Origin: Eubacteriales bacterium
GTDB taxonomy: Bacteria; Bacillota; Clostridia; Oscillospirales; CAG-272
DNA length: 64,000 bases
Direction of reading: 5' to 3'
NCBI GenBank assembly: GCA_045531795.1
Contig: JAZSET010000073.1
Coordinates: forward strand, 202-64,201
The notes beneath the pieces were generated by a model. It made no database searches. It was not told the DNA's origin and saw nothing but the letters and a program-made list of their open reading frames with translations. Below, piece by piece: positions 2,912 through 63,800 of the stretch (position 1 is its first letter; every line of letters begins with the position of its first letter). The position numbers and the translations under genes are program-made.

Positions 2912-3300
2912 GAAAAATATATGCATATACAAAGGACAACCGTAGTCCTGTAGAAGAATTTATAAAAGCTACAAATGACAAGATTAAGGAAAAACTCATA
3001 TTTCAGATGATCTACATAAAGAACGAAACAAACCCTTTTTGCGAACCTTACGTAAAGCACTTTTCAATGGAAAGGTACAGAAGGATGTATGAGCTTCGCC
3101 TAAAGGCAGCGGAAACTATGATTAGAATAGTTTTTTATGAGCATGATGGTGAAATTGTATTTCTGCACGCTTTTCATAAGAGAGATAAAAAGGATACGGA
3201 CAAAGGTCTTGAAAGCGCTTTGAAGATACTCGAAAGCATAGTTGATAAGGACGGCAAAATCCCAAAAGAAAATAAAAAGGAGTTGAAGCTGTATGATTAA
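2908..3300 (+). CDS. Gp49/HigB-like (RelE/ParE superfamily) toxin-like protein
   Basis: 'SPVEEFI' and 'YELRLKAAETMIRIVFYEHDGEIVFLHAFHKRDKKDTDKGLESA' match the Gp49-family pattern (ELR..., R..Y, LH.F.KK..KTP). The start overlaps the parB stop (TTGA). Confidence 0.6.
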   Translation: MRKIYAYTKDNRSPVEEFIKATNDKIKEKLIFQMIYIKNETNPFCEPYVKHFSMERYRRMYELRLKAAETMIRIVFYEHDGEIVFLHAFHKRDKKDTDKGLESALKILESIVDKDGKIPKENKKELKLYD

Positions 3301-27037: not shown

Positions 27038-27057
27038 CGGCAAATCACAACACAAAA

Positions 27058-27082
27058 AGGCGGCAGGGATAACTTGCCGCCT
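27058..27082 (+). terminator. Hairpin after the S1-domain gene
   Basis: aggcggca/tgccgcct stem with a weak T tract. Confidence 0.45.
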
Positions 27083-27107
27083 TAAACTATTTTACGGAGG
27101 GTTTAAG

Positions 27108-27293: not shown

Positions 27294-27920
<627 letters not shown>

Positions 27921-31107: not shown

Positions 31108-31212
31108 TCTGCTAAAAAATATCGGCGATGAAAATTTCGAGTTTTGCGATAATTGTGGAAAGAAGTTGCCATAGCCATAACTTAAGGCTAAAAAAGCTAT
31201 TCTTCCTATTTT

Positions 31213-31436
31213 AGCAAAACCTCTTGAAACACCTAATATACTATGCTAAAATAACATTGTAAAAATGGTAAGCAGTTAAAATGGTAAGCAGTTGAACAGG
31301 TATGAAAGTACTATCCCGTGGGATAGCTATGCTCATACCTGTTTTTTCATTTTTACGGACAATAAAATATACATGGGAAACAAACACGCAAAGTAATGTC
31401 TTAGGACTGCTATGCGTGCTTTTTTGTTTTCAAAAA
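31213..31436 (+). promoter_or_regulatory. Promoter-leader-double-terminator module, copy A
   Basis: -35 TTGAAA (31224-29), 17-nt spacer, extended -10 TGCTAAAAT (31244-52). Tandem 16-nt repeat aaaatggtaagcagtt x2 (31262-31293), then terminator 1 and a second hairpin with a T-run. Repeated at 41694-41920. Confidence 0.6.
31295..31347 (+). terminator. Intrinsic terminator 1 of leader module A
   Basis: aacaggtatga/tcatacctgtt outer stem and ctatcc/ggatag inner stem, followed by T6. Confidence 0.7.
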
Positions 31437-31548
31437 GAAAGGGGGCACTCGATATGAGGGCTTAAAAGAAAATCGGAACAAAACAATTTCAGGAGGTAAA
31501 GAAAAATGAAATCTTTCAAAGTCGGGAGTGAGTTAAGTTTTGCGTGAG

Positions 31549-34500
31549 ATGTGCGAACTGTCTCAAATAACCTACAATGACGCGGTAAACGGACTACAGC
31601 TTAATTGTTATGCAGATACTCTTGTGTATCATAAAGCAAACAGTTCAGAGCGTAATCTTGTTGCCATGCGTTTTGGAGGTTATCCCGAGCAAGTCAGGGC
31701 AATGACAGATGTACTCCGTAAAGGAACGGGCGTGCAGGCTGTCGTTGAAAATCACAAAATCATCTTGAACGCCAAAGAGAGTGCATACAAAAGAAGTGTT
31801 ACCCACGACGGTATTTATGCCGAAGGTACGCTTTTTGCCCTCGATGATGAAAGCGGTGAAATGAAGGATGAGGAAAATGTTGAAGTAGAAAGACCGGAGA
31901 GCAAACGAAAAATGTATATCTTCTGTGATGAAGGAGATACCGATTCGTTGTTTGAAGAGCTTGATAAGAAAACTTCCATACCCCTTATCCCTCAGTTCAA
32001 AGACTACATCTTAGAGAAATGTATGAAGCGTAAGATCTTGGTGCCGCTTGAAGTGTTATCTTCAAGTATTCACTTTGATGCGTATATGCTTGAGGTGCGA
32101 AATGATGAAAAGGAAATCGAGGATATTGTTAATGCCGGACTTAAATCAGGCAGGATATCCATTCCCGGTGCAATTAAAAACAGCGGTTTTGAAAACATTG
32201 GAACGGTATCGCAATATCTGAATACCTATGGCGTTACCATTGCAAGCAGAATAAGAGAGTCGTTTAATCCCCTATTCGATCCGTCAACAGAAACTATCTG
32301 TAATAGGCTTAAGGTAATTAACGGCTATCTTAAAAAGAATGTGGGATATACCTTGTATTCCGCACAGCTTGCAGTTGCAGAAGCACTAAAACGCAGACTT
32401 GACAAATCAAAGGTCGGTCTTGTTGTTGCAGAATGCGGAAGCGGAAAAACAAAAATCGGCTCGGCTGCACTGTCAGCTCATCAGAACGGAAAAAAGTGCT
32501 TTAATGTCATTCTCTGTCCTTCTCATGTTACAAAGAAGTGGGTACGGGAAATCGAAGAAACTCTTCCGAATACACAGGCTGAGGTAGTGTATAACCTTGC
32601 CGATATTGACCGTGTACGGCAAAAACATCTTGAGGGCGATAAAACCACATACATCGTTTTGTCAAAGGAACGTGCAAGAGACGGATATATGAGAAAACCG
32701 GTGGCGGTTTACTCTAAAGTCCGAAAGGCTTATGTCTGTCCTTGGTGCGGAGAACCTATTATGATGGAAATTAACGATGATGGTACACATTACAGAGTTC
32801 GTGCAGATCAGTTCTACTTTCAAAAGGAAAACACCAAAAACCATAAGTGTGAGTCTTGCGGAAGCGTTCTCTGGGGTGTCCTTAATCCAGATGACAGACG
32901 AGTGGAATTTAACGATTGGGTGAAGATCGGTGGTTACGGATTCGTATACCGACAGTTTGCTCACAGGCATCTTGAAAAGACAAAGGATCCAAAGGTGCTT
33001 TCAAAACTTGAGGAAATAATCTCAAATCCCGATGTTGCCTTTATCGCAAAGGGAGCATATAACCGCTATTCTATGAGCGATTACATTGCCGAACGCTTTA
33101 AGTCCATTGACGGTGTAATACTTGACGAATTACATCAGTTTAAGGGCGACAGCGGACAGGGCGATGCTATGGAAACTCTTGTAGGATGCAGTAAAAAGGT
33201 CATAGGAATGACGGCAACACTTATTAACGGTTATTCCAGCGGTTTGTTCTATCTTCTTTACCGTATCGTACCGCATTTAATGAGGGTGGATAATAAGGAG
33301 TACAACAATCCCGGTCTGTTTAACAGTGAATACGGTGTTACTGAAACGACTTATGAGCTTAATGATGAGGGCGGATATAACTCCAACAGTAAAAGCCGAA
33401 AGCGAAAGAAATTGCATGAACGGCAAAAGCCCGGTGTGTCACCTCTTGTCTATTCAAGGTTTCTCATTGACTGTGCAGTTTTCTTATCTCTTAATGATAT
33501 GGGAAAGCATTTGCCAGACTATGAGGAAATTCCGATAGAGTTAAATCTCACACCGGAAATCGAAGACGAGTACAAACGCATCGAGAAGGAATATCGTAAC
33601 TGTATGAATAGGCGTGACGGCTCGGCCCAAAAGATAATGTCAAGCTTTTTAAGCCTGCTTACCACATATCCCGACCAACCTTACGACCATGAGCCTATAT
33701 ATTATCCAAAGTCAAAAGAACCAATCGTTACACCAAAGAATCTTTCGGATATCAGTGTACTTAACGAAAAAGATGTTGCTACACTTGATATTGTAAAACG
33801 AAAGGTTTCAGGAGGCGAACGTGTACTTATCTACACAAGCTGGATAAGTATTGACACACAGGATAAGCTCAAAGGTATTTTGGAGGACAACGGATATAAG
33901 GTGGCAGTTCTTGAACAAAAGGTTGCACCTGAAAAACGAGAAGAATGGGTACAAAAAAGAGTAGATGACGGTATAGATGTCCTTATTACAAATCCCAGTC
34001 TTGTGGAAACGGGCTTGGATCTTAATAGCTTTACAACACTTATCTACTACAACATCGGATATAATCTTTTCACTTTCAGACAAAGCTCGCGCCGTTCTTG
34101 GCGTATCAATCAGACATCCCCTCGCATTGAAGTATATATTCTGTATTTCAAGGGTGTAATGCAGGCAAGAGCAATTCGTCTTATGGCATCAAAGCTTGCA
34201 GCGGCAACTCTTGTTGAAGGCAACTTTACAGATGAAGGACTTGCGGCTATGAGCGATTGTACTGATATGACCTCGCAGCTTGCACGTGAGCTTACAAAGG
34301 GCATTCGTGATGAGGTTGAGGATGTTGCGGCTATGTTCAAGAAAATGGCGATTATCAAGGATAATACCGATGTGGAGGAAGAAACCGACACATATACCAT
34401 TTATGTTGACGAAGAAGAAGCGAAAAAGCAGAAAAAGGATATGGAGCTTACAGTTGCACAGAAATTGCAAAGGGCGATGTTCCTTGCAAAGCAGGCAAAT

Positions 34501-34587
34501 GCAAGAAAATCCTCTGTGTTTTTCTCTATGTACACAAACGAAGATGTGCCTGCAGGTACACAGTGTACGCTTTTCGATGTAGCATAA
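31549..34587 (+). CDS. SNF2/DEAD-like superfamily-2 helicase with inserted zinc ribbon
   Basis: Motif I 'AECGSGKTKIG', motif II 'ILDELHQFKG', zinc ribbon 'CPWCGEP...CESCGS', C-terminal helicase motifs 'TNPSLVETGLDL' and 'FRQSSRRSWRINQ'. The track start is TTG at 31540, and an in-frame ATG lies at 31549. Confidence 0.8.
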   Translation: MCELSQITYNDAVNGLQLNCYADTLVYHKANSSERNLVAMRFGGYPEQVRAMTDVLRKGTGVQAVVENHKIILNAKESAYKRSVTHDGIYAEGTLFALDDESGEMKDEENVEVERPESKRKMYIFCDEGDTDSLFEELDKKTSIPLIPQFKDYILEKCMKRKILVPLEVLSSSIHFDAYMLEVRNDEKEIEDIVNAGLKSGRISIPGAIKNSGFENIGTVSQYLNTYGVTIASRIRESFNPLFDPSTETICNRLKVINGYLKKNVGYTLYSAQLAVAEALKRRLDKSKVGLVVAECGSGKTKIGSAALSAHQNGKKCFNVILCPSHVTKKWVREIEETLPNTQAEVVYNLADIDRVRQKHLEGDKTTYIVLSKERARDGYMRKPVAVYSKVRKAYVCPWCGEPIMMEINDDGTHYRVRADQFYFQKENTKNHKCESCGSVLWGVLNPDDRRVEFNDWVKIGGYGFVYRQFAHRHLEKTKDPKVLSKLEEIISNPDVAFIAKGAYNRYSMSDYIAERFKSIDGVILDELHQFKGDSGQGDAMETLVGCSKKVIGMTATLINGYSSGLFYLLYRIVPHLMRVDNKEYNNPGLFNSEYGVTETTYELNDEGGYNSNSKSRKRKKLHERQKPGVSPLVYSRFLIDCAVFLSLNDMGKHLPDYEEIPIELNLTPEIEDEYKRIEKEYRNCMNRRDGSAQKIMSSFLSLLTTYPDQPYDHEPIYYPKSKEPIVTPKNLSDISVLNEKDVATLDIVKRKVSGGERVLIYTSWISIDTQDKLKGILEDNGYKVAVLEQKVAPEKREEWVQKRVDDGIDVLITNPSLVETGLDLNSFTTLIYYNIGYNLFTFRQSSRRSWRINQTSPRIEVYILYFKGVMQARAIRLMASKLAAATLVEGNFTDEGLAAMSDCTDMTSQLARELTKGIRDEVEDVAAMFKKMAIIKDNTDVEEETDTYTIYVDEEEAKKQKKDMELTVAQKLQRAMFLAKQANARKSSVFFSMYTNEDVPAGTQCTLFDVA

Positions 34588-34606
34588 CAGAAAGGATTAA
34601 ACAAAA

Positions 34607-35797
34607 ATGAGGGTTACAGTAAACAGAAAAATAATGCTTGAACACTTAAAGTCTATGAGCAAGCTTGTTCCGACAAGCAGTGCGATTCCCGAACTTAAAG
34701 GTTTTCTTGTTGAAGCAAATGAAGATGACGGATATTTGTATGTGTCGGCAAACAATATTGAGTCGGCAATACAGAGAAAATTTACTGCCGGGATTGAAGA
34801 AGGCGGAGCTTTTGTTCTCGATGCAAGACTGCTTATGGGCATTCTCTCGAAACTTGCAGGCGATGATGTGCTTTTTGAAATGGAACAGGAAGGAAGTGTG
34901 AAAATAGGCTCGGAGAGTTGTACTTATACAATGAGTACTCTCAGAACAGAGAATTTTCCGCGACCTGATATTCCTTTTCCCGATACCACGATGCACGTTG
35001 CCGGAATGAAACAGTTATATAACAAAACAAGTGATACTGTTCACAAGAATGTCGAGGAAATACTCAACGGTATACACCTTGAGATAACTCCAAACGAAAT
35101 AAGGGCAACAGGCTGCGACGGAAAGTGTATCGGAAGTGCCAGACACGAAATGTCTTGTGGCGGCAGTATGAAAGTAACTCTTTCAAGGGTAGCTTTGTCT
35201 TACCTTGTATCTGCTGCAGGCGATGAAGAGCTTGAAGTAGGTTTGTGCAGAAATTTTGTTGTCTTTATGAAGGAAGGAATGCTTTTCTCGGCTAAAAAAC
35301 TCGCAAGGGAATATGTCGATACAGAAAAGATATTTTCTTCTGTGGGCAGCGAATATGAAGCAAAGGTAGAGTTTAAGGAGTTCAAAGAATGTGTACGCAG
35401 TGCCAAAAACATCGCATCTATGGGACACGAAACTTCGTATATTAAACTTGACTTTGAAGATGAAGGTATAAAGGTCTCTACACAAAACGATGTCGGAGGC
35501 GGAGCAAATACTGCTGAAGCGGTTATGTTCAGCGGCACTTCGGGGCTTAGCTTCTACTATCCTGCGGCTTTGCTTGAAAATGCCTTTAAGACGATTGACG
35601 GTACTATGATCGTAAGGGTTGATAAACGAGGCTATCTTCTCATTTTCAATAAACTTGACAGATACCTTATTACTCCCCTTCCTGCATCGGCTGTTCAAAG
35701 TCAGATCTTAAGGTTTGAAAACCAAAAGAAAATAGCTCGCGGAGAAATCGAAGATAAGACTGTGAAAAAAACGAGAACTTCAAGAAAAGCGGCATAA
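34607..35797 (+). CDS. DNA polymerase III beta sliding-clamp-like protein
   Basis: About 396 aa. The N-terminus 'VTVNRKIMLEHLKSMSKLVPTSSAIPELKGFLVEANEDDGYLYVSANNIESAI' and 'FVLDARLLMGILSKL' follow the DnaN pattern. Confidence 0.6.
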   Translation: MRVTVNRKIMLEHLKSMSKLVPTSSAIPELKGFLVEANEDDGYLYVSANNIESAIQRKFTAGIEEGGAFVLDARLLMGILSKLAGDDVLFEMEQEGSVKIGSESCTYTMSTLRTENFPRPDIPFPDTTMHVAGMKQLYNKTSDTVHKNVEEILNGIHLEITPNEIRATGCDGKCIGSARHEMSCGGSMKVTLSRVALSYLVSAAGDEELEVGLCRNFVVFMKEGMLFSAKKLAREYVDTEKIFSSVGSEYEAKVEFKEFKECVRSAKNIASMGHETSYIKLDFEDEGIKVSTQNDVGGGANTAEAVMFSGTSGLSFYYPAALLENAFKTIDGTMIVRVDKRGYLLIFNKLDRYLITPLPASAVQSQILRFENQKKIARGEIEDKTVKKTRTSRKAA

Positions 35798-35813
35798 AGG
35801 AGTTAAAACAAAT

Positions 35814-37196
35814 ATGTTATACACCAAAATGAATCAAATCATTGATGAAGTAAATGCAGAAGTGGCAGAAAGAGAGGAGCTTGTCGAGCTTATCGCCATT
35901 GCCTTGTTATCTAAGAAGAATCTATTTATCTTAGGTGATACAGGTCAGGCTAAAAGCTATGCCATAAATCTTTTCCGTAAGCGTATTGAGGGAGCAAAGC
36001 AATTTGAAAGGCTTATGTCAAAGCAGACCGATGAAGAACAGCTTTTCGGCAGACTTGACCTTTCAAGTCTTATTCCCGGCAATATGCCGCATCAAGAACT
36101 TATGAAAGATGAGTGTTATGCAAAGGCATATACCGAGCTTCAAAAGACTTATGACAACTACAAGAGCACTCACGACACTACAAGCATCAGCCGTGCAGTA
36201 GAACTGCAAAACATGGCAGAACGCTTAAAGAGTATTATCTGTACACTAAGCAGTACATCACCAAAGATGATAACAGACGGAAAGATACCCGACAGCCACA
36301 TTGTGTTTCTCGATGAGATCTTCAAGTCGGGCGACGGTATCTTGAACTCACTGCTTACGGCACTCAATGAAAAGGTATACACAAATGAGGGACAGACGGT
36401 AGATATTCCGGTTGTCTCTTTCTTTTCCGCTTCTAACGAAATACCAAACTTCAACGATTCTGCACAGGCTATCTTAAAGCCCTTGTATGACCGCTTTGAA
36501 TTAAAGGTACTTACCGAGTATGTCAAGGAAAAGGACAATCGTTTGCAGGTTTTGAAGGGTAAACAAGGGTATCTTCCCACACCGTCTAAAACCAGTATCA
36601 CCTTATCTGAACTCGAACAAATGCAAGTCGAAGTACAGGCGGTATTTGTCCCCGACTCAATCAATGAGCTTATGGACAATGTACTGTGCGAACTAAGACG
36701 AGCAGGCGTTCATGTGTCGGACAGAAAGTTTTTCGGATTTACTCCGATCGTTCGTGCAAAGGCATATCTTAACGGAAACACAGAGGTAACATCAAAGGAT
36801 CTGCTTGTTCTCAAAAACTATTTTTGGAACAGACCTGAAGAAATACCCACTGTCGAAAAGGTACTTTGCGACCTTTGTGAAAATCCGCTTGGTGCTGCCA
36901 TTGACAGTCTCATAGCTATGGCAGGAGAAAGTCAAGCAGAGATGAATGAAACAATAGCAGCACTTGATGCAGGGTGCGACGAAAGAGAAAAGATGAAGTC
37001 TTATGTTGTCTTTTCAAAACAGTTGTTTCGCATTTATCTTGAACTTGATAAACTCAAGACAGATGATTTGAGCGATAGCGATTTACAGGAAGTAAACGGC
37101 GGTTTACTTACACTTGAAGAAATGCTCACCGAAGCGGCAAAGTCAGTCGGCACGACCTACATACCGCTCAGTGACCAAAAACGATTAAATTTTTAA
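35814..37196 (+). CDS. MoxR/RavA-like AAA+ ATPase
   Basis: Walker A 'LGDTGQAKS', Walker B 'HIVFLDEIFKS', and 'LNSLLTALNE', typical of MoxR-class AAA+ proteins. Confidence 0.65.
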   Translation: MLYTKMNQIIDEVNAEVAEREELVELIAIALLSKKNLFILGDTGQAKSYAINLFRKRIEGAKQFERLMSKQTDEEQLFGRLDLSSLIPGNMPHQELMKDECYAKAYTELQKTYDNYKSTHDTTSISRAVELQNMAERLKSIICTLSSTSPKMITDGKIPDSHIVFLDEIFKSGDGILNSLLTALNEKVYTNEGQTVDIPVVSFFSASNEIPNFNDSAQAILKPLYDRFELKVLTEYVKEKDNRLQVLKGKQGYLPTPSKTSITLSELEQMQVEVQAVFVPDSINELMDNVLCELRRAGVHVSDRKFFGFTPIVRAKAYLNGNTEVTSKDLLVLKNYFWNRPEEIPTVEKVLCDLCENPLGAAIDSLIAMAGESQAEMNETIAALDAGCDEREKMKSYVVFSKQLFRIYLELDKLKTDDLSDSDLQEVNGGLLTLEEMLTEAAKSVGTTYIPLSDQKRLNF

Positions 37197-37208
37197 AGGA
37201 GAATTATT

Positions 37209-37652
37209 ATGGGATTTAACAAAACTATTTTTATCGGAAGACTTACGAAAGATCCTGAGATTAGAATGTTCGGAGAAGCAAAGGTGGCAAACTTTACACT
37301 TGCAGTTGACAGACGATTCAAGAGCAAGAACGAAGATGCACCCACAGCGGATTTTATCCCCGTTACTGTATGGCGAGGAACTGCTGATTTTGTAGAAAAG
37401 TATTTTACAAAGGGTAAGCAGGTTGTTGCTTGCGGCTGGCTTGAAACCTATTCCTACGAAAAAGACGGTCAAAGAATTCACTCCTTCCGTATCAATGCGG
37501 ATGAGGTTGGATTTGCCGACACCGCAAGGTCCGATAACGGCGGCGGACAGAATAACGGAGGAACAGGTGCTTTTTCCGGTCAGATGAGTCCCGGCGATTT
37601 CAGCGGCTTTGATCCTACAGATTTTAGCAATGACGATGACCTTCCGTTTTAA
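37209..37652 (+). CDS. ssb: Single-stranded DNA-binding protein
   Basis: 'NKTIFIGRLTKDPEIR', an OB fold, a Gly-rich linker, and the acidic tail 'DDDLPF'. Confidence 0.9.
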   Translation: MGFNKTIFIGRLTKDPEIRMFGEAKVANFTLAVDRRFKSKNEDAPTADFIPVTVWRGTADFVEKYFTKGKQVVACGWLETYSYEKDGQRIHSFRINADEVGFADTARSDNGGGQNNGGTGAFSGQMSPGDFSGFDPTDFSNDDDLPF

Positions 37653-37714
37653 TTAAGAATCAGAGGTTGTGCGGGTAAGGATAACACCTTATCTGCACAC
37701 CTTCAAGGAGTAAT

Positions 37715-39289
37715 ATGGGACAATATAAATTCATAGAGGATGTTCTTTCGGGACTATCTTCTTTAACACAAAAAACGACAGGAGAAAAAACAGACAGAGT
37801 TCTTAAATCCACTCGCATTGAACAGGCAATCTACGAAGACCTTTCTTCCGATGCAGATGGACTTGCAAGGTACGCATCAGAAGGCAGTGAAAAGCTTAAA
37901 TCCTTTTCCAGCCTTGTCAACGATGTATTTCAATCCGTTTACGGACTCAGAGCAAGATACACAGACGATAGCGACCTTTCAGCCCTTTCAAAGAGTCTTA
38001 ACAAGACTATCTTGGGAGATCTTATGAGTGATGAAAGTTATGCTGCTGTCAAAAGTGTATGCGAAGGCAAAGAGCTTCCCGCAATCGGCGCCACTGAAGA
38101 ATTTACCGAAAAGTTAGTCGAAAATCTCGATGATGTTTTAAGTAAAACTACAGGCGGCAAAGGTAAGGCAGATGCCCTTGACAAAATGCAGGATGATGAG
38201 ACCGCTTTACAGGAAAAATTACAAGAACTTCTAAAGAAAAGAGAAACCACTCCGCAAAGCGGAATGGAAGCACTGAACGAAAGAATCGTAAATACGGCTA
38301 ACCGCATTGTTTCAAAGCGAGAACAAATGCAGATGTTTGAAAACATCATACAACAGAGTCTCGGAAAGAGCAGCGGTGAGCTTAAAAGGATTGTTTCTTC
38401 TTGTGCCGATTCTGCACTTGAGAGAGCTGAAGGAATAAGCAATATGCTTATGGCTTGGGGTGATGGGGACGCCGAAATGAAAAAGACTCCGGTAAACACC
38501 GAAATCTTAAAGAAAATGGCATCCTCTCACAAACTAAGGCTTATAGCGAAATTCTTGGGAAGATACAAGGAGAAACTTCGTTCCAAACGCCTTGCGGGAT
38601 TTACCTATGGCAGAGGTGAAAAGTATGATATCGAATACGGAAACAACATTAACCGTGCTTTGACATCAGAACTTGCCACTCTCGCATCCCCCGATCTTGT
38701 ACCTCTTTTCTTGAGGAAGTACCAAAACAAATCATTAAAGCAGTACCGAAAGCGTGAGCCTGAGTACAAAGGCGGTGGAGATATTATCGTCTGCCTTGAT
38801 GAATCTTCATCTACCTTTGGCGAAAACAATGCTTACGGTATGGCACTTGCAATGGTGCTTTATGAGATATGCAGAGAAAATCACGCAAATTTCGCACTTG
38901 TACATTTTGCAAAGAATACAAAGGTGGACTATTTTCCTAAAGATGAAAAGGTATCATCCGGGAAGGTGCTTGACTGTGCTGAAACCTTTCTCGGCGGCGG
39001 TACCAACTTTGAAAATCCTCTGCGAGAAGTATTTGCTCTGACGACAAACGGAAAGCTTGATAAGCCCGACATTGTATTTGTCACAGACGGCGAATGCGAT
39101 GTCTCGGATGAATTCTTGAAACTGTTTGACGAATTTAAGGCAGATACAGGTGTAAAGCTCACAGGCATACTTCTCGATAAGGGAAGCTGCTTTGAATTTT
39201 CTTTACAAAAATTTGCAGATGTGATTTTCAGAACAAGTGAACTTGAGGAGGATACAATCATTGAACGAAGCATTGAACAATTTTCGTAG
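37715..39289 (+). CDS. von Willebrand factor A (VWA) domain protein, likely partner of the MoxR ATPase
   Basis: C-terminal VWA domain with MIDAS 'DIIVCLDESSS', 'GGGTNF' and 'IVFVTDGE'. Confidence 0.7.
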   Translation: MGQYKFIEDVLSGLSSLTQKTTGEKTDRVLKSTRIEQAIYEDLSSDADGLARYASEGSEKLKSFSSLVNDVFQSVYGLRARYTDDSDLSALSKSLNKTILGDLMSDESYAAVKSVCEGKELPAIGATEEFTEKLVENLDDVLSKTTGGKGKADALDKMQDDETALQEKLQELLKKRETTPQSGMEALNERIVNTANRIVSKREQMQMFENIIQQSLGKSSGELKRIVSSCADSALERAEGISNMLMAWGDGDAEMKKTPVNTEILKKMASSHKLRLIAKFLGRYKEKLRSKRLAGFTYGRGEKYDIEYGNNINRALTSELATLASPDLVPLFLRKYQNKSLKQYRKREPEYKGGGDIIVCLDESSSTFGENNAYGMALAMVLYEICRENHANFALVHFAKNTKVDYFPKDEKVSSGKVLDCAETFLGGGTNFENPLREVFALTTNGKLDKPDIVFVTDGECDVSDEFLKLFDEFKADTGVKLTGILLDKGSCFEFSLQKFADVIFRTSELEEDTIIERSIEQFS

Positions 39290-39698
39290 AGTCGTAATTG
39301 ACCACTACACAGGACCGGAAATCACAGAATTTTCGGACTTGCGAAAGCATTACGGTACAGGGCAATCCTATCTCATATCCCAAAATCCCGAAAAGAAATA
39401 TGGGTATAGAATAGGTGTACAAACTAATATCGGTGATATTGAAGTAAGCGAATGGCAAAGGCTTGTAGAAGAACTCATTGAGCGTAATGGTGAGCAAGGC
39501 TTATTTGCTCAAATACTTGAATGGGAAAAGCTTTATGGTTTTTCCCGTAATGCTAAAGAGGCTAAACAACAAGCATTGGAACTTCATGCAGCACGAATTT
39601 TCAATAACGAAGATTGGTGTGACTATATCGCTTTCAACGAAAAATATCGCCCTGAAATATTAAGAAATAAAGGAGAACAGAAAAATGAAAAAGATTAA
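39261..39698 (+). CDS. Hypothetical protein
   Basis: The ORF is in the operon. The TTG at 39261 lies 9 nt after GAGGAGG; the track start at 39237 is also possible. Confidence 0.45.
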   Translation: MNEALNNFRRVVIDHYTGPEITEFSDLRKHYGTGQSYLISQNPEKKYGYRIGVQTNIGDIEVSEWQRLVEELIERNGEQGLFAQILEWEKLYGFSRNAKEAKQQALELHAARIFNNEDWCDYIAFNEKYRPEILRNKGEQKNEKD

Positions 39699-39837
39699 AA
39701 AGATAATTAACAGCATAAAAGACAAAGCAGAAACATTCTATATTGATGTCTATAAGTGGAACAAAGGAAAGATCAATGCTATTGCAATACTTGGCGTTAT
39801 CGAGGTAGCGTTAACAATCATTCTTGTGACAATATGA
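39685..39837 (+). CDS. Small (50 aa) single-pass membrane protein, below the ORF-track size cutoff
   Basis: AAGGAG lies 9 nt upstream of the ATG. Translation: 'MKKIKKIINSIKDKAETFYIDVYKWNKGKINAIAILGVIEVALTIILVTI'. Confidence 0.5.
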   Translation: MKKIKKIINSIKDKAETFYIDVYKWNKGKINAIAILGVIEVALTIILVTI

Positions 39838-39851
39838 AGGAGTAAAATTTT

Positions 39852-40052
39852 ATGGATAAGAAAAACAAGAAGCCAAGATGTATGCTTATAGGGAAAGACG
39901 GTAATATATTTGTCCTTTTGGCTTTGGCTTCCCGCACCCTGAAAGAAAATGGATTAAATCAAGAAGCTGATGAAATGTACAAGCGGGCAACATCATCAAG
40001 CAGTTATGATGAGGCTCTGTGCATTATCGGCGAATATGTAGTTATATGTTAA
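39852..40052 (+). CDS. Hypothetical small protein (66 aa)
   Basis: ORF with an aaggag RBS. No motif recognised. Confidence 0.45.
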   Translation: MDKKNKKPRCMLIGKDGNIFVLLALASRTLKENGLNQEADEMYKRATSSSSYDEALCIIGEYVVIC

Positions 40053-40064
40053 TGGAGGTAAACT

Positions 40065-40262
40065 ATGTTTTATAAGGTATTATTTTTACTTGCTTGCTAC
40101 AACATGTTTGTAAGTGTAAGAAGTTTTATTAAGGAATACGTTGTTATCGAAAATGGCGAACTCGTTCAAATTCCGAAGAAAGCATACATTTCTATTGGTG
40201 CTACTGTACTGTTTCATATAATGGTACTTTCGGTTTGCACATTGCCGTCATTTTTGTTTTGA
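40065..40262 (+). CDS. Hypothetical small membrane protein (65 aa)
   Basis: Two hydrophobic segments. RBS ggagg upstream. Confidence 0.4.
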   Translation: MFYKVLFLLACYNMFVSVRSFIKEYVVIENGELVQIPKKAYISIGATVLFHIMVLSVCTLPSFLF

Positions 40263-40284
40263 TTATTTGAAGGAGATATAAGTT

Positions 40285-40530
40285 ATGAAATTATTTGGCA
40301 AATCGGATAACAAAAAGCCGCAAAAACAGGTTAAATATGTATCCGGCGAACTCGGTATTGTCGAAAAAGGAAAAAGAGGTATGATATATTCTACAGATGG
40401 CAAAATCATATTTACCTCTGAAATCGTTGATCTCAAGAACAAGACCGAGCACGGAATAGATATTGAAACTCTCAATTCTGTCTACAAAGTCTCTTACCCT
40501 CAAGGCTGCAAGGCACAAAGAGTAAGCTGA
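40285..40530 (+). CDS. Hypothetical small protein (81 aa)
   Basis: ORF with RBS 'gaaggag'. No motif recognised. Confidence 0.45.
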   Translation: MKLFGKSDNKKPQKQVKYVSGELGIVEKGKRGMIYSTDGKIIFTSEIVDLKNKTEHGIDIETLNSVYKVSYPQGCKAQRVS

Positions 40531-40560
40531 CTTATTTTTGGAACACTTAAATAAAAATAA

Positions 40561-40605
40561 ATCCGGTGTGTTGCCTTGATATTAAGGTACACATCGGATT
40601 TTTGT
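40561..40605 (+). terminator. Intrinsic terminator
   Basis: atccggtgtg/cacatcggat stem followed by T5. Confidence 0.7.
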
Positions 40606-40722
40606 TAATGATTATTAAATTTGAGAATCTTGATTTCAAAGTGGTTTTATGTTAAAATGAATCAATACAAATATTATTTGTTTGAAATATATTTATATGC
40701 TATTAGATGGAAGGTAAATTTA

Positions 40723-41637
40723 ATGAACGATCAATTTGCTGACGAATGTGTAAAAGTCATACAATCGGGAAATATAAATGAGATTAACCAATATTTAGAA
40801 CATTTTTTTGAAAGCATTGATATTGATAAACTAATTAAAAAAATTAAAAGATTTCGTTATTTAAATATTGCTTCTTTAAAAGATGATGAATTGAAATATG
40901 AAATAAAAAATATTCTTATGCATAATAACATATGGAGCTTAATAAATACATATTCTGTTTTTAAGACGGGAAGATATTTTTATAGGGTTCGTTTGTTGAA
41001 AAATTTTGATTTTCCAAATGAAAATTTACAACAACTTTCTGATTTTTGGAATCCTCCTATTAAATTTGTAGATAAATATGGAAGAATAAACGCACCGCAC
41101 GAATCGCTCCTATATACATCTTTTAATCCTCAAACTGCAATATATGAAAAAAAGGCATTTAATTTGCCTATAGCATTATTTGCATATAAAAACAAAAGAG
41201 ATATAAAAGTTTCTTGGATTGGAGCACCAACAAACTATAAGCACCATAACTTTACAAGTCCAAAAGCGATATGTGTTCATGAGATTATAAATAATTTTTT
41301 AATTGATGAATTTACACAAGAAGTTCCTGTAGGAAAAGAAAGCATGTACAGGATCACAGAACACATTGCTAAGGAATATTTTTATGATCCAAATGGAAGC
41401 GGATGGAGATATCCCTCTATTAAGAAAGAAGCATCTGATAATATCTGTTTTTCAACAAACAAGTTAACAGATGATATTGAGTTGGTGGGGGCAATTATTG
41501 GAACGATGTATAAGAATGGAGGATTTGACTTCAAATATTTTATTAGGGGTACAGAAATTGAGAAGAATTATCTATATACAGATAAAGATAATGTTGAATT
41601 CTTCAAGCGGTTGTTTCCAGAGTTTAAGAAAATTTAA
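40723..41637 (+). CDS. RES-domain protein (NAD+-targeting toxin family) with ~110-aa N-terminal extension
   Basis: 'YFYRVR', 'YGRINAPHESLLYTSFNPQTAIYEK' (R...E core) and 'GWRYPSIK' (Ser) match the R-E-S signature. The gene is markedly AT-rich. The ATG at 40723 follows 'ggaagg'. Confidence 0.6.
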   Translation: MNDQFADECVKVIQSGNINEINQYLEHFFESIDIDKLIKKIKRFRYLNIASLKDDELKYEIKNILMHNNIWSLINTYSVFKTGRYFYRVRLLKNFDFPNENLQQLSDFWNPPIKFVDKYGRINAPHESLLYTSFNPQTAIYEKKAFNLPIALFAYKNKRDIKVSWIGAPTNYKHHNFTSPKAICVHEIINNFLIDEFTQEVPVGKESMYRITEHIAKEYFYDPNGSGWRYPSIKKEASDNICFSTNKLTDDIELVGAIIGTMYKNGGFDFKYFIRGTEIEKNYLYTDKDNVEFFKRLFPEFKKI

Positions 41638-41693
41638 ACAAAGTATAGTGCAAAATATAAATAAAACCGTATATTAACATTTTTCCCTTTTTC

Positions 41694-41920
41694 AGCAAAA
41701 CCTCTTGAAACACCAAATATACTATGCTAAAATAACAATGTAAAAATGGTAAGCAGTTAAAATGGTAAGCAGTTGAACAGGTATGAAAGTACTATCCCGT
41801 GGGATAGCCATGCTCATACCTGTTTTTTCATTTTTACAGGACAACAAAATATTTTAAGGAAACAAACACACAAATCTAAGTCTTTGATGGCTTTATTTGT
41901 GTGTTTTTTTGTTTTCAAAA
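41694..41920 (+). promoter_or_regulatory. Promoter-leader-double-terminator module, copy B
   Basis: The first ~145 nt are identical to copy A apart from 3 substitutions, at a constant offset of 10481 nt. -35 at 41705-10, -10 at 41728-33, terminator 1 at 41776-41828, terminator 2 at 41864-41910. Confidence 0.6.
41864..41910 (+). terminator. Intrinsic terminator 2 of leader module B
   Basis: Perfect 12-bp stem aaacacacaaat/atttgtgtgttt followed by a T-run. Confidence 0.75.
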
Positions 41921-41940
41921 TTCAAGGAGGTAAACAAAAA

Positions 41941-42393
41941 ATGAAAAACCACAGGTTGAACGAAAGGCAAAGCAGATTTGCCCAAACACATTACGGTGTT
42001 CTTGAGGATTTCTTGCGAAAGCGAGGTCTTCCATTTGAAGAATACTACGATGCTGTTGTGTTCGAGTATCTTGAAGCAGTAAAACGCTATGATGAGATCC
42101 TTGCATTAAGACGAGAAACATTCGAGTCTGTTGCGGAAAGAATCATGCTTATGGCACTTCGAGAACACTTTGAACAGTCTGACAGACTGCAGGAACAAAA
42201 GGATTTGTTTGAAGCCGTGTATCCCTACTCTCACAGATATGGAGATATGGTACCGGACAAAACAGTTAATGTTTGCGAACAGGTATGCCGGAGATACGCC
42301 GATACTCCAAAAAAGAAGTATAGGCTCTCATATATACGAACACCCAAAAACGTAAGTTGCATTGTCGTCAAGGGGGTGAGCGTTATGAGGTAA
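41941..42393 (+). CDS. Sigma-70-family-like (region 2-like) small transcription factor
   Basis: aaggagg RBS before the ATG at 41941. 'LEDFLRKRGLPFEEYYDAVVFEYLEAVKRYDE' resembles sigma region 2 of mobile-element sigma-like proteins. The assignment is tentative. Confidence 0.4.
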   Translation: MKNHRLNERQSRFAQTHYGVLEDFLRKRGLPFEEYYDAVVFEYLEAVKRYDEILALRRETFESVAERIMLMALREHFEQSDRLQEQKDLFEAVYPYSHRYGDMVPDKTVNVCEQVCRRYADTPKKKYRLSYIRTPKNVSCIVVKGVSVMR

Positions 42394-54032: not shown

Positions 54033-54104
54033 TTTGGAATACTTAAAATAATAGAAGAAGCATGGCAAAACTATGAAAACTCTTAAAATTCACATGTAAT
54101 AGCC

Positions 54105-54146
54105 AAAAAAGTGGGCGGTTCAATTCTGAATTGCCCACTTTTTTGT
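54105..54146 (+). terminator. Intrinsic terminator at the right edge of the element
   Basis: aaaaaagtgggc/gcccactttttt stem with a T-run. Confidence 0.8.
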
Positions 54147-54215
54147 GTATTATACGAACGTTGCGATAGTTTTTTTCTATTTTAAGCAAAATAAGAATTA
54201 AATAATTAGATATAT

Positions 54216-54244
54216 TTGCGGTTGTTAGAGCATTAACATATTAT
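54216..54244 (+). promoter_or_regulatory. Candidate sigma-A promoter
   Basis: TTGCGG (54216-21), 17-nt spacer, TATTAT (54239-44). Confidence 0.35.
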
Positions 54245-54432
54245 AAGTCTTATATGTGGACACAGATTTTTTAAGATAAGTAAGATTAGCATATTGAAGA
54301 GGAACATCTGAAATGTAACAGCTATCTAAAATACAACAAATATCCGAAGGTGCGAAATCCGCAGTATTGTGCTGCAATTAAAAAATAATACGCAGGTGAA
54401 AAGATAAGTTTAACTTATTGAATGGTCAAGAT

Positions 54433-54487
54433 AAGTCAGACAAGCCAATGTGAGAAAAGAGCGTTGGTTTGTCTGGCTTATTTTTTT
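54433..54487 (+). terminator. Strong intrinsic terminator with no upstream ORF
   Basis: 16-bp stem aagtcagacaagccaa/ttggtttgtctggctt with two G-U pairs, followed by T8. Confidence 0.75.
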
Positions 54488-54503
54488 GCAAAAAAAATTT
54501 TTT

Positions 54504-54530
54504 AACCATGACAGCAGTTGTCAGGTTTAA
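54504..54530. promoter_or_regulatory. 27-bp palindromic site, copy 1 (candidate operator)
   Basis: aaccatgacagcagttgtcaggtttaa, with imperfect inverted arms AACC(A)TGACA-N5-TGTCAGGTT. It is identical to 59865-59891 and lies 33 nt upstream of the HTH gene. Confidence 0.55.
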
Positions 54531-54563
54531 CAGATAAACTGTGTTCGGAAAGGAGGAATATAT

Positions 54564-54929
54564 ATGGGAACGGCTGAACGAAGGCACGAAATAATGCGAG
54601 TTTTATGTCGGAGAAGATACGAAACAATCAAAAATTTAGCGAATGAGTTCGGCGTTTCAGAAAGAACCCTTGCGCGAGATATTGAGATGCTAAGCCTAAC
54701 TGAACCTATTTATACAAAGCAAGGAAAACACTGCGGCGGCGTGTACGTGATGGATGGATTTTCCATGACACGAATGTATATGAAAGACACAGAACTTGCT
54801 GTACTTCAAAAGCTTTCAAACAGTGTTTATGATGATGCTGTTTGTCGGCTTGATACGGCTGAACGCTTAATACTTAAAAACATAATCTCGCAGTACACAA
54901 AACCTACAACAAAAAAAGGAGAATTGTAA
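54564..54929 (+). CDS. HTH transcriptional regulator (DeoR/HTH_11-like N-terminal domain)
   Basis: 'RRHEIMRVLCRRRYETIKNLANEFGVSERTLARDIEML'. aaggagg RBS upstream. Confidence 0.65.
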   Translation: MGTAERRHEIMRVLCRRRYETIKNLANEFGVSERTLARDIEMLSLTEPIYTKQGKHCGGVYVMDGFSMTRMYMKDTELAVLQKLSNSVYDDAVCRLDTAERLILKNIISQYTKPTTKKGEL

Positions 54930-60808: not shown

Positions 60809-63800
60809 ATGTGTAATGGTAATAATAATTACTGTCCCGACAATAATTACTATCCCGAGAATAATTACTGTCCCGACAATAATGACTGTTCCGAGAATAA
60901 TTACTGTCCCGACAATAATGACTGTCCTGACAATAATGACTGTCCTGACGACAATTGCCCCGGAGGTAATACCGGAAATCCGTCCGTTGTGTGCGTTAGT
61001 TCGGTAAGCATTTCTTCAGGTAATGTAACTATAAAAAAGGGCAGTTGGAGTTACCCAAGCGTACAAGTATACCCTAATAATGCTACCAACAAAACACTTT
61101 ATTGGTATAGCTCCAATTCTGCCGTGGCTTCTGTAAATTCAAACACGGGATATATTTACGCCAACGGTGTTGGTACTGCAAGAATTTATGCACAGGCAAC
61201 CGACGGCAGCGGTTGCAGTGATTACATTACTGTCACCGTTACAAGCGGAACTATATATGTTTCCTCTGTGGAGCTTAACAGAAGCTATGTTTCTATTGAA
61301 AAAGGAAAAACATATACTCTTTCAGCTACGGTATGTCCTACTAATGCAAGCAATAAATTGCTTGCATGGAGCAGTAGCAATACTTCTGTTGCAACTGTTA
61401 GTTCGAGCGGTGTAGTAACCGCAAAAGCTTGCGGATATGTAACCATTACCGCAACTGCAAAAGACGGTAGCGGTGCGTGCGATTGTTGTGACTTTTACAT
61501 TACAGGCGATACGCTTGTAAACTCGGTTTCTTTAAGCCCCTCAAGCAAAACTATCAGCGTTGGAGATTCTTTTTGGGTATATGAAACTATATGTCCTACT
61601 AATGCTACAAACTGTGCAGTTACTTGGAGTACAAGTAATTCAAGTGTTGCAACCGTAACTCAAAGCGGACTTGTTATTGCTCAGGGTGCAGGCAGTGCGA
61701 CTATTACGGCAACTGCTCAAGATGGAAGTGGGAAAAAGGGTTATTGCTATGTAACGGTTAAAGGCACAGTTTGTGTGGAAAGTGTTGAAGTAAGTCGTTC
61801 GTCATTGACACTATATAAGGGAAACACATATACCTTATCTGCTACAGTTTGCCCGACAAATGCCAATAACAGAAGTGTTCGTTGGAGCAGTGGAAATACA
61901 TCAATTGCTACTGTAAGCTCAAGTGGTCTGGTAACCGCAAAGACCGCAGGTAGAGTTGCGATATATGCGACAGCCAAAGATGGCAGTGGATGTAGCGACT
62001 ATTGTTGGGTGACTGTTAAAACGATTCCCGATCCCGTTTACACACCGGCACAGGAGGAAATTCCTGAGAGCAAGGTTCCCGAAAGTACATTTGAAGACCC
62101 GATAGATATGTACAGCGGTGCTCATACTCTTAAAAACACATTGCTCACATTGTTTGGCGGTCAGGGAACAAAGCTTGTTGCTGAGTATAATTCAACCAGA
62201 TTATCTGAAGGTGATTTTGGCAAAGGCTGGTATCATAATTTTGAGAAAACTCTTGAATTTGACGGCTGTGAAGCGAGAGTATATAGCTCGCCTTCGACAT
62301 ATTCGAGATACACCTCGAATGATGATTGCACAGTATTTACTTGTACTGCTGCCAATAAGAACAACTTTGTTCTTACTGTAAACACGGCGAATACTTTACC
62401 GTATTCAATTGACTGTAACAAGGAAAGAACCGAGTATTATGACAGTGAAGGCCGTTTGGCAAAAATTGTTGACCATCAAGGCTTTGAAACGGTTATTTCT
62501 TATTCGGATACCCTTATTACAATTACCGACTCTGTGTCGGGCAAAAAGCTCTATCTTGAAAAGGATTCTTCCTGCAAGGTTGTAAGAGTGTATGATGAAA
62601 ATTCCCGTCAGGTTACATTAACCTATACAGGCGAGCTTTTAACTGCTATTTGTGATGCAAACGGCAATACTTTAAGCTATACCTATAACGAGGACGGCCA
62701 GGTTTTGACCGGTACTGACTCTAACGGCATCTGCTATTTTACAAATACATATGATGAAATAGGCAGAGTGGCTACACAAAAGGATGGTATAACCGGCTCG
62801 ATTACATCATCTGTCACTTATGAGGACGCAGGTAAGCGAATTTGTACGAACCGTAACGGAAAGACGAGTATCCGTGTGTTTAACGGCAACGGCTTGCTTA
62901 CAAGCTTTACCGATGAAAACGGAAAGACAAAGACATATACCTATGACAGTCGTTATAATGTAATCAAGGAAACCGATGCATTGGGTAATTCAGTGGTCAA
63001 GGAATATAACTCCTTTAATAAGCCTACTGTTATTATCGATAAGAACGGGGGTAAGACTTACTTTACTTATGATTCTAAGGGTAATGTAACTAAAATCACC
63101 TATCCAAAAATTGGTGAGGTTGCACCGTCTGAAAGCTTTGTATATAACGAAAGAAGCCAAATAACTTCTCATACTGATGTTCGCGGCAACGTTACGGTAT
63201 TTACCTATGATGTAAGTGCAATGCCGCTAACCAAAAAGGTTGGAAGCAGAAATGCAATTCAGTATTCTTATGAGGGTGGCTTACTTAAAGCACAAACAGA
63301 TGCTTTAGGCAATACTACTCAGTATAGCCACAATGCAATCGGTCAGGTAATAACCAAAACCGATGCTGATAACAAGGCTACAACTTACGAATACGATGCT
63401 TGCGGAAATCTGCTTAAAACAACCGATGCGAACGGTCAGTCTGTTGTAACAACCTATGACGGCAACCACCAAAAGACCTCTGTTACCGATGCGCTTGGCA
63501 ACAAAACTGAGTATACCTATAACGGCAATATGAAGAATACCCTTGTCAAGTTCCCTGACGGCAATACGGTGTCTTATGAGTATGATGGTGAGGACAGACC
63601 CATTAAAACCACCGACCAGGCAGGTAATGTTACTACTGTTCAGTATGATAGTGTTGGCAGAGCAGTTTCGAAGCACTTTGCAGACGGCAGTGTGGTTAAT
63701 TACGAGTATGATGCTATAGGTAACATTGTAAAGGAAACCAACCCCAAGGGTGCAGTAACTCTTAAAACCTATGACGGCAACGGCAATGTATTGTCTGTAA

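Follow-up and report, generated by a model that had tools for sequence, protein, structure and literature searches.

An integrative and conjugative element with a duplicated leader module

The window analyzed in this study is a stretch of 64,000 nt from an Eubacteriales bacterium (assembly GCA_045531795.1; contig JAZSET010000073.1, forward strand, positions 202 to 64,201), and it is a large integrative and conjugative element (ICE) of a gut Clostridium. Two long operons of this element are each preceded by a copy of a compact (~220-bp) noncoding module, which contains a promoter, tandem short units, and two hairpins, and which we tentatively read as an antitermination leader. All window genes are on the + strand. 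The window opens with the end of an rRNA operon (i.e., the 23S end, a tRNA, two 5S genes, and a tRNA, as detected by an Rfam scan), followed by genes for ParA, ParB, a sortase, and a 2233-aa surface protein, and then by genes for TrbL-like, VirB4/TraG-like, and VirD4-type coupling proteins. RepA_N, DUF5697, and a 294-aa protein built of S1 domains come next, and then a resolvase, a metallo-beta-lactamase-fold protein, a Big_2 protein, and the first module (copy A). Operon 1, which encodes an SNF2-type helicase and DnaN-like, MoxR, SSB, and VWA proteins, ends at a good terminator (~40559-40605). A gene with a weak RES domain separates operon 1 from the second module (copy B), behind which lies operon 2, encoding a 150-aa protein, JAB, ThiF/E1, a DUF6094 methylase, E2, Rad52, an SMC-like ATPase, and a primase-like protein and ending at a bidirectional terminator (54104-54145). 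The conjugation genes are located at 14 to 25 kb of the window, and neither module stands at their start.

The direct repeats reported in a first-pass annotation of this sequence (31213-31436 and 41694-41920) were borne out by an alignment of positions 31150-31520 with positions 41631-42000. Over ~145 nt (31213-31357 and 41694-41838), copies A and B differ by three mismatches and no indels; a 1-nt indel follows, and the remainder is diverged but collinear to ~31436/41920. The flanks of the two copies are unrelated on both sides. A covariance model built from family members (R1) has only two matches in the window, namely, copies A and B (104 and 102.5 bits). The window contains exactly four occurrences of the 16-nt unit AAAATGGTAAGCAGTT (31262, 31278, 41743, and 41759), which form the two tandem pairs that had been claimed, and none of 100 shuffled sequences had five or more matches to the unit at three or fewer mismatches. 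Each copy also carries the promoter that had been proposed for it (TTGAAA-17-TAAAAT with a TG extension). The features of the two modules are listed in Table 1.

Table 1. Positions of the module features, the adjoining genes, and the candidate factor in the window
Feature	Start	End	Strand	Basis
Candidate trans-acting factor, 294-aa S1/OB protein	26153	27037	+	inference only
Promoter A, TTGAAA-17-TAAAAT, TG extension	31224	31252	+	consensus scan, 10/12 matches
Predicted transcription start (G31259) and 5' strand of outer stem P1 (GUAAAAAUGG), copy A	31259	31268	+	fold, family comparison
Two tandem units (AAAATGGTAAGCAGTT), copy A; cores GGTAAGCAGTT at 31267-31277 and 31283-31293	31262	31293	+	
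Hairpin 1 (P2), copy A; inner stem CUAUCC/GGAUAG, conserved GGGAUAGCUAUG; U6 at 31342-31347; 90 to 92% of cells paired in the family	31294	31344	+	
P1 3' strand, copy A (UCAUUUUUAC), complementary to the transcript 5' end	31347	31356	+	
Hairpin 2 (T2), copy A; core CACGCA/UGCGUG at 31385-31418, U-run at 31420-31430	31376	31431	+	
Three-codon upstream open reading frame AUG AGG GCU UAA, strong Shine-Dalgarno sequence, right after T2	31454	31465	+	
First long gene of operon 1, SNF2/DEAD-type helicase	31540	34587	+	
Promoter B, TTGAAA-17-TAAAAT, TG extension	41705	41733	+	consensus scan
Predicted transcription start (G41740) and P1 5' strand, copy B	41740	41749	+	fold, covariance model
Two tandem 16-nt units, copy B	41743	41774	+	
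Hairpin 1 (P2), copy B	41775	41825	+	fold
P1 3' strand, copy B	41828	41838	+	fold
Hairpin 2 (T2), copy B; stem ACACACAAAU/AUUUGUGUGU, then U7	41858	41916	+	alignment, fold
First gene of operon 2, 150-aa protein, weakly sigma-70 region 2-like; ribosome-binding site at 41924-41930	41941	42393	+	

Distribution and constancy of the module family

Exact-word searches were run on a species-representative genome collection. The exact 32-mer spanning two units was found at 15 loci, and the 19-mer GTAAAAATGGTAAGCAGTT was found at 67 loci, of which approximately nine are chance matches in unrelated phyla; the remaining loci belong to gut or rumen metagenome-assembled genomes (MAGs) of Clostridia, Oscillospiraceae, Acutalibacteraceae, or Eubacteriales. 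The covariance model yielded 109 matches in 100 loci, representing 94 unique sequences. At least 20 loci have the module immediately upstream of either an SNF2/DnaN operon or a JAB/E1/methylase operon, the latter with or without the sigma-like gene; the proteins of these operons share 40 to 85% identity with those of the window. Homologous elements thus do carry the module before the same two operons, the opposite of what the first-pass annotation had named as fatal to its proposal. The orientation of the module is always that of the downstream genes. Co-occurrence statistics are weak because these genomes are MAGs, many contigs of which end at a module.

A TAnnnT hexamer is located at exactly -12 to -7 from the first conserved base in 85 of the 94 unique members, and 74 have the TG extension. 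The -10 hexamer varies among subfamilies (TAAAAT, TATAAT, TATACT, TAAACT, and TACAAT), as do the -35 hexamer and the spacer. Because the conserved element begins 6 nt past TAnnnT despite these differing promoter sequences, it appears to begin at the transcription start (GUAAAAAUGG), which would place the starts of copies A and B at G31259 and G41740, respectively. By sequence, the hexamers, their 17-nt spacing in the window (within the 16 to 18 nt expected), and their conserved position are those of sigma-70-type promoters. The first bases of the predicted transcript of copy A include a -10-like TAAAAAT at +2 to +8. An Frpo-like single-stranded DNA promoter was also considered and rejected, the template-strand fold pairing only the -10, with a T-rich stretch at -50, and leaving the -35 in a 27-nt loop.

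Most modules contain two units, and others contain one or three, at a spacing of 16 or 17 nt or, where a small hairpin is inserted, 42 nt; in one subfamily, the units are separated by a 30-nt insert that has its own small hairpin. The unit core GUAAGCAGUU (GTAAGCAGTT) is constant across the family, and the 5' part of unit 2 is variable (AAAAYG, ACACGG, AAACAG, or AAAATT). Because the first collection of the family relied on exact words taken from the units, the units seem more invariant than they are; less biased samples, obtained via the S1-like and SNF2 proteins, have GGUAAGCAG in at least one unit and variants like GGUAAACAGGU in the other.

Several further observations concern the promoter and the units. 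The minus strand contains a promoter-like TTTACA-17-TATATT (31235-31263 and 41716-41744). Its -35 hexamer is the reverse complement of TGTAAA, which is conserved where the transcript starts; the match may be due to chance. The -35 of copy A is bracketed by an inverted repeat (ATTTTAGCA at 31209-31217 and TGCTAAAAT at 31244-31252); other subfamilies have TTTTTAAC and GTTAAAAT around the -35, and the two sides seem to change together. When run X10 was mapped on 31247-31288, the word depth over the unit region was ~1900 versus 40 to 60 in the flanks (i.e., 30- to 40-fold higher), which indicates a single sample with dozens of module copies.

The module has no counterpart in the databases that were searched. 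At the gathering score, Rfam 15 matched only rRNA, 5S, and tRNA, along with one T-box elsewhere, in the window, the module, and 18 loci; on the module with E values up to 10, there were only chance-level matches, the best of which was trpB (22 bits versus a gathering score of 59), so that no Rfam family matches the leader. BLAST searches with the module found no match among PLSDB plasmids or GenBank phages. All nine IMG/VR matches were discarded because they trace to a single phage coding sequence, in which the 19-mer occurs by chance and neither a second unit nor a promoter is present. A literature search for the unit returned unrelated primers only. No defining feature that was tested assigns the module to a known family, and, as judged from these comparisons, the module may represent a new, widespread leader of the antitermination type in Firmicute mobile elements.

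Conserved helices of the leader

Both leaders are predicted to fold into an outer stem (P1), hairpin 1 (P2), and hairpin 2 (T2), with free energies of -55.3 and -54.6 kcal/mol (z of approximately -5.5), and none of 200 shuffled leaders folded as stably. The first-pass annotation had suggested a search of related elements for covariation in the hairpins, and compensatory changes were found in both P2 and T2. In 19 sequences, 92.7% of the P2 cells are paired versus 37 to 50% with the partners slid, and changes on both sides affect 10 cells versus 3.5 in shuffles; G-U pairs occur as well. The 3' side of P2 contains a nearly invariant GGGAUAG(G/C)U(A/G)YG, also in otherwise different subfamilies. 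The 5' arm starts with UUAAGCAGGU in the family and GAACAGGU in the window, and this start looks like a degenerate third unit. The U-rich tail after P2 ends in CAUUUUUAC, the exact complement of the 5' end GUAAAAAUG, with which it forms P1; L086 is without both strands, and L084 has a U-G pair.

Every ICE-type leader has T2, in the form ...AACACACG-loop-CGUGUGU7... and with flanks that covary. Eight of its pairs are changed on both sides in 15 leaders, and the core helix is 88.5% paired versus 30 to 63% with the partners slid. In the window, the stem of copy A is lengthened by A-rich/U-rich flanks, and the stem of copy B shows compensatory changes relative to copy A. A G+C-containing stem-loop followed by a U-tract on the transcribed strand, as in an intrinsic terminator, is formed by T2 in both copies. 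For hairpin 1, this combination is found in the window (U6) but not in all relatives, several of which have a poor U-tract (e.g., CUAUUGUCAUUUUUAC in L016). The annotation of both hairpins as terminators therefore stands for hairpin 2, which by its sequence is predicted to be a conserved intrinsic terminator and the universal one of ICE-type leaders; hairpin 1 is likewise conserved as a structure, but its T-run does not always resemble that of a terminator.

No conserved alternative pairing able to disrupt T2 was seen in the folds of both copies or in the leader comparison. A refolding attenuator was thereby ruled out, neither arm of T2 having a conserved alternative partner, and modification of the polymerase is favored over it.

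Evolution of the two copies

Copies A and B were compared across five elements in which both are known. The promoter and core (-28 to +110) are 92 to 100% identical within an element and 54 to 87% identical between elements. The linker and T2 track orthology, SNF2-type sequences resembling other SNF2-type sequences and JAB-type sequences resembling other JAB-type sequences. Since neutral promoter-spacer positions are homogenized too, this pattern is one of concerted evolution by gene conversion over the promoter and core, which explains why only 3 differences per 145 nt are found in the window. The identity of the two copies, from which function had been argued, is thus not itself evidence of selection. 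That argument holds on other grounds, as the family-wide constancy of the units, the P2 motif, and T2, judged from the sequence comparison, is evidence of selection. Together with the synteny with the same operons, this constancy supports the module as a real, noncoding, and selectively maintained unit.

Transcription of the downstream operons

In copy B, T2 ends at 41916, the ribosome-binding site begins at 41924, and the ATG is at 41941. A consensus scan found no promoter-like site between T2 and the first gene. Because T2 abuts the ribosome-binding site with no promoter in between, transcription of the operon must pass T2. Upstream of the modules, no terminator was found for the Big_2 gene (before copy A) or the RES gene (before copy B).

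The first gene of operon 2 had been described as sigma-like. Two of four orthologs of its 150-aa product match Sigma70_r2 (E = 3e-5); the window protein itself has no match in Pfam, NCBIfam, or PDB and no close homologs in an indexed search. PADLOC returned only generic domain matches, and the operons are therefore not a catalogued defense system.

Short reading frames and a hairpin were also noted in operon 1. The upstream reading frame AUG AGG GCU UAA is kept in the SNF2 leaders of L031, L061, L048, and L078 and is absent in JAB leaders. A 13-codon frame with a perfect ribosome-binding site (31506-31547) runs, out of frame, into the TTG/ATG start of the SNF2 gene (31540/31549); as L031 is arranged similarly, translational coupling is a more probable explanation than a frameshift error. 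Between the SSB and VWA genes (37663-37704), there is a very stable hairpin that has no U-tract.

A candidate antitermination leader

The order of promoter, conserved element, terminator, and gene and the lack of a refolding alternative resemble processive antitermination systems (N/nut, put, Q/qut, canT, and conAn) rather than riboswitch-like attenuators. Our preferred interpretation, which we hold tentatively and at somewhat less than even odds, is an antitermination leader of the nut/put/qut kind that would act at the RNA level and depend on a factor. The proposed course of default termination and its relief is as follows. The module would constitute the promoter and 5' leader of one long operon and act as a licensing switch. 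A housekeeping-type promoter would start the transcript exactly at GUAAAAAUGG, and the first ~105 nt would fold as a conserved domain, in which the 5' end pairs with CAUUUUUAC to form P1, the two GGUAAGCAGUU units are single-stranded between P1 and P2, and P2 carries the GGGAUAGGU motif. The strong intrinsic terminator T2 would follow ~25 nt further, directly before the first ribosome-binding site. By default, polymerase would halt at T2 and, in the window, probably already at hairpin 1. The operon would be on only if polymerase from the module's own promoter were made termination-resistant via the element at +1 to +105, most likely by a protein that binds the tandem units on nascent RNA, as N binds nut; the multi-S1-domain protein of the element is a candidate binder. 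A terminator after a promoter is sensible only if polymerase from that promoter can be licensed; polymerase arriving from the upstream Big_2 and RES genes would then be stopped at the module.

Several properties favor an RNA-level factor. The units are direct repeats with a flexible number and spacing (one to three; 16, 17, or 42 nt), which is easier to accommodate in RNA binding than in cooperative DNA binding. The fold predicts them to be unpaired between P1 and P2, the adjoining helices show RNA-type covariation, and the orientation is always that of the transcript. The fixed position at +1 fits licensing by an RNA 5' domain and also fits a promoter-proximal DNA site.

Other observations weigh against this interpretation. 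P1 shows no covariation because its pairing is invariant, and three GUAAACAUGG variants are uncompensated. No strong or convincing + strand internal terminators were found within either operon, and the anatomy therefore does not require processivity. The S1-like gene was not found in the 8 to 20 kb around island-borne arrays of the module (described below), so that the factor would have to act in trans from another element, be host encoded, or not exist. S1 domains are usually of low sequence specificity. The strict promoter-adjacent position fits a DNA-level mechanism equally well. Public RNA-labeled runs, including two "transcriptomic" fecal runs, were uninformative on starts and ends, as their short contigs also include promoter DNA, and other public runs in which the element is present look like DNA or metagenomes.

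The candidate factor

Approximately 200 residues of the S1-like protein match ribosomal protein S1 (NCBIfam, E = 5e-16; PDB bS1, E = 6e-15). The structural model of the protein consists of several consecutive OB/S1 barrels (predicted local distance difference test score, 82.6), and the best structural matches are bS1. The protein belongs to an unnamed family of >500 members and is encoded by a backbone gene, which in L043 and L064 ends 277 nt before the SNF2 module. It is a candidate factor for the module by inference only. At 60 to 80% protein identity, the units are essentially unchanged, so a comparison of the protein with the units has no power, and our literature search for S1 domains, ICEs, and antitermination in combination found no paper.

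In the window, a strong terminator (27057-27083) and then a serine resolvase gene (27324-27920) lie 3' of the S1-like gene; the same resolvase also precedes an island array in L003/L090 (77% identity). The resolvase cassette at 27.1-31.1 kb had been described as an accessory insertion. The resolvase is not merely that, as its gene also comes after the S1-like gene in many relatives; the stretch from the S1-like gene to copy A is nevertheless variable.

Comparison with known systems

The module resembles the lambda N/nut and HK022 put systems, in which two near-identical copies follow the two promoters of two long mobile-element operons and a short conserved RNA element precedes the terminators to be passed. 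It differs in that it begins at +1, combines tandem 11- to 16-nt units with a long hairpin, and resides in conjugative elements of Firmicutes rather than in lambdoid phages. Unlike a nut site, it has no boxA/boxB, with no boxA-like CGCUCUUUA/UGUUCUUUA visible in its sequence, and no N-like family was found among the scanned open reading frames (ORFs).

Q/qut (i.e., PR'-tR' with 6S RNA) shares with the module a strong promoter, -10-like first bases, and a long operon behind a terminator. There, the default transcript is short and terminated, and polymerase from the system's own promoter is licensed, which is the logic proposed here for the module. In contrast to qut, the candidate sites of the module are direct repeats downstream of the start, and no Q-family Pfam match was obtained in the scanned ORFs.

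In Gram-positive conjugative elements, processive antitermination, whether cis acting or factor dependent, is established for conAn (PMC8191782) and for canT of Tn916 (PMC11658703). Like the module, conAn (of the pLS20 family) and canT belong to conjugative elements of Firmicutes and lie near an operon start; as RNA elements, they allow terminators to be passed (PMC8191782 and PMC11658703) and insulate element genes from outside transcription, both of which are proposed here for the module. However, conAn2 and canT are RNAs of hundreds of nucleotides that occur in one copy per element, have no tandem units, and have no sequence similarity to the module, which would control SNF2/SSB and JAB/E1/methylase/Rad52 operons rather than conjugation genes. 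In the cATT zipper attenuator of pLS20 (PMC13401043), the segments flanking a long stem-loop are complementary, as in the module, and the stem extension competes with the terminator. P1 of the module does not overlap T2 and thus, unlike its counterpart in cATT, cannot be a T2 antiterminator.

The toxIN type III toxin-antitoxin system shares the order of promoter, tandem short repeats, terminator, and protein gene. Its repeats are ~36 nt long in 2 to 5.5 copies, whereas the units of the module are 16 nt long in one to three copies and are followed by long multigene operons. A type III system was rejected, as SNF2 and sigma-like genes take the place of a ToxN-like endoribonuclease downstream and PADLOC gave no match to such toxins.

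Alternative explanations

Two alternatives retain a low but appreciable probability. The first, which we consider unlikely, is a factor-free, cis-acting antiterminator RNA comparable to HK022 put, EAR, or canT of Tn916, in which the domain of P1, the units, and P2 would bind polymerase and cause it to ignore T2. T2 would then stop only polymerases without a correctly folded 5' domain, and regulation would take place at the promoter. The presence of one copy behind the promoter of each of two long operons, as for putL and putR, agrees with this explanation, as do a conserved structured domain that begins at +1 and the modules in islands with no S1-like gene nearby; in addition, canT shows that such RNAs exist in Gram-positive conjugative elements (PMC11658703). 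However, the domain comprises ~105 nt, 35 nt of which are unstructured repeats, unlike put (two stem-loops) or canT (~450 nt), and has no similarity to any Rfam family. A constitutive antiterminator at a constitutive-looking promoter would also make T2 pointless, unless upstream read-through were its sole target.

The second, to which we give similarly little credence, is that the units act as DNA, either as operators at +8 to +35 for a repressor that would block or roadblock the promoter or as a loading site for a Q-like antiterminator that would engage polymerase at a sigma-dependent, promoter-proximal pause. Against this, the units are direct rather than inverted repeats, their 16-nt spacing corresponds to 1.5 helical turns, and some modules have a spacing of 17 or 42 nt or a single unit. 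In its favor, the distance of the units from the -10 hexamer is strictly fixed. The -10-like TAAAAAT at +2 to +8 would be in keeping with a pause, the GUAAACAUGG and GUAAAGAUGG variants retain the key A and T, and the order of promoter and terminator follows the lambda PR'-qut-tR' logic. Nevertheless, the units of L086 are ~150 nt from the nearest good promoter, and no Q-family or other antiterminator domain was found among 50 ORFs scanned with Pfam. In L010, L012, and L045, genes located just upstream of modules encode a small HTH_11 protein (a relative of the product of 54564-54929), but the association is limited to these three loci.

It is quite improbable that the module is a gene for a small RNA of ~90 to 175 nt, ending at hairpin 1 or T2, the units of which titrate a protein or pair with a target. 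The module does have its own promoter and terminator, and the island arrays of two to four modules with their own promoters resemble multicopy sponge RNAs. The operons would, however, receive leak-through transcription only, and this conflicts with the layout, in which T2 abuts the first ribosome-binding site and, with no other promoter present, the operon depends on the module promoter. Furthermore, the complementary target AACTGCTTACC was not found in the window or the loci, and the place of the module before the same two operons is conserved.

Attenuation by a leader peptide, in which translation of the four-codon mini-ORF previously read in each unit (AUG GUA AGC AGU UAA) governs a terminator, is hardly credible and was rejected by comparison: the mini-ORFs are present in both window copies, but they have no Shine-Dalgarno sequence, the first AUG lies at +8 of the transcript, the second is replaced by ACG, GGG, AGG, or UUG in most relatives, so that variation in the 5' part of unit 2 destroys the second mini-ORF, and no alternative pairing exists between the ORF and T2.

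Modules in integrative islands and their implications

In unrelated integrative islands, two to four modules stand in an array at intervals of 200 to 300 nt, and every module has a promoter of its own. The arrays are followed by ~700 nt with no conserved reading frame and then by a gene for a 290-aa tyrosine-recombinase-like protein. Next come Xis and a Tn916-type integrase or a large serine recombinase, beside tRNA or host genes. Such arrays were observed in L003 (2184-3024) and also in L009, L030, L049, L054, L062, and L063, with a conserved order of subtypes. The ~700-nt stretch (L003, 3030-3760; L009, reverse strand, ~1500-800) is conserved in sequence with frame-breaking indels between loci, contains another GGGAUAACUAUG motif, and has no Rfam match; a long structured RNA is a possible interpretation.

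In uncultured gut Clostridia, large conjugative elements are major carriers of genes, and, to our knowledge, nothing is known about how their genes are switched on. The module offers a compact and easily recognized regulatory part that is shared with other classes of integrative islands and that would control the two biggest nonconjugation operons of the element (i.e., the DNA-handling genes and the ubiquitin-like/methylase genes). With ~100 instances and two covarying helices, it is also a ready candidate for inclusion in Rfam as a new family. If the module is an antitermination tag, it would represent a new kind beside the few known processive antitermination systems and provide a handle to detect, induce, or silence such elements, and the island arrays would make cross-talk between mobile elements directly testable. 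A more speculative extension, which we regard as rather improbable, is that the GGUAAGCAGUU-tagged leader serves as a shared regulatory currency of gut Clostridia mobile elements, in which the multi-S1 protein of the ICE loads onto the 5' tag and licenses polymerase past the terminators of establishment operons, and islands with captured arrays excise only when a helper ICE is active. If this were true, the arrays before the excision and integration genes would amount to satellite-like eavesdropping via an antitermination signal.

Other features of the window

Positions 1-975 contain two tandem 5S genes (505-621 and 645-761) and two tRNA genes directly before the ParA gene (1099), and the element seems to abut, or to be inserted beside, an rrn/tRNA locus. 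A Gp49/RelE-like toxin-family gene lies right after parB (2908-3300). Behind operon 2, a 420-nt leader (54146-54563) with a second strong terminator-like hairpin (~54427-54488) precedes the gene for the 121-aa HTH_11 protein (54564-54929), homologs of which are located 210 to 730 nt upstream of the modules in L010, L012, and L045. Finally, three promoter-like matches at 36-nt intervals (60837-60955) correspond to a tandem 36-nt repeat within a large ORF that runs off the window end and likely encodes a repetitive surface protein.

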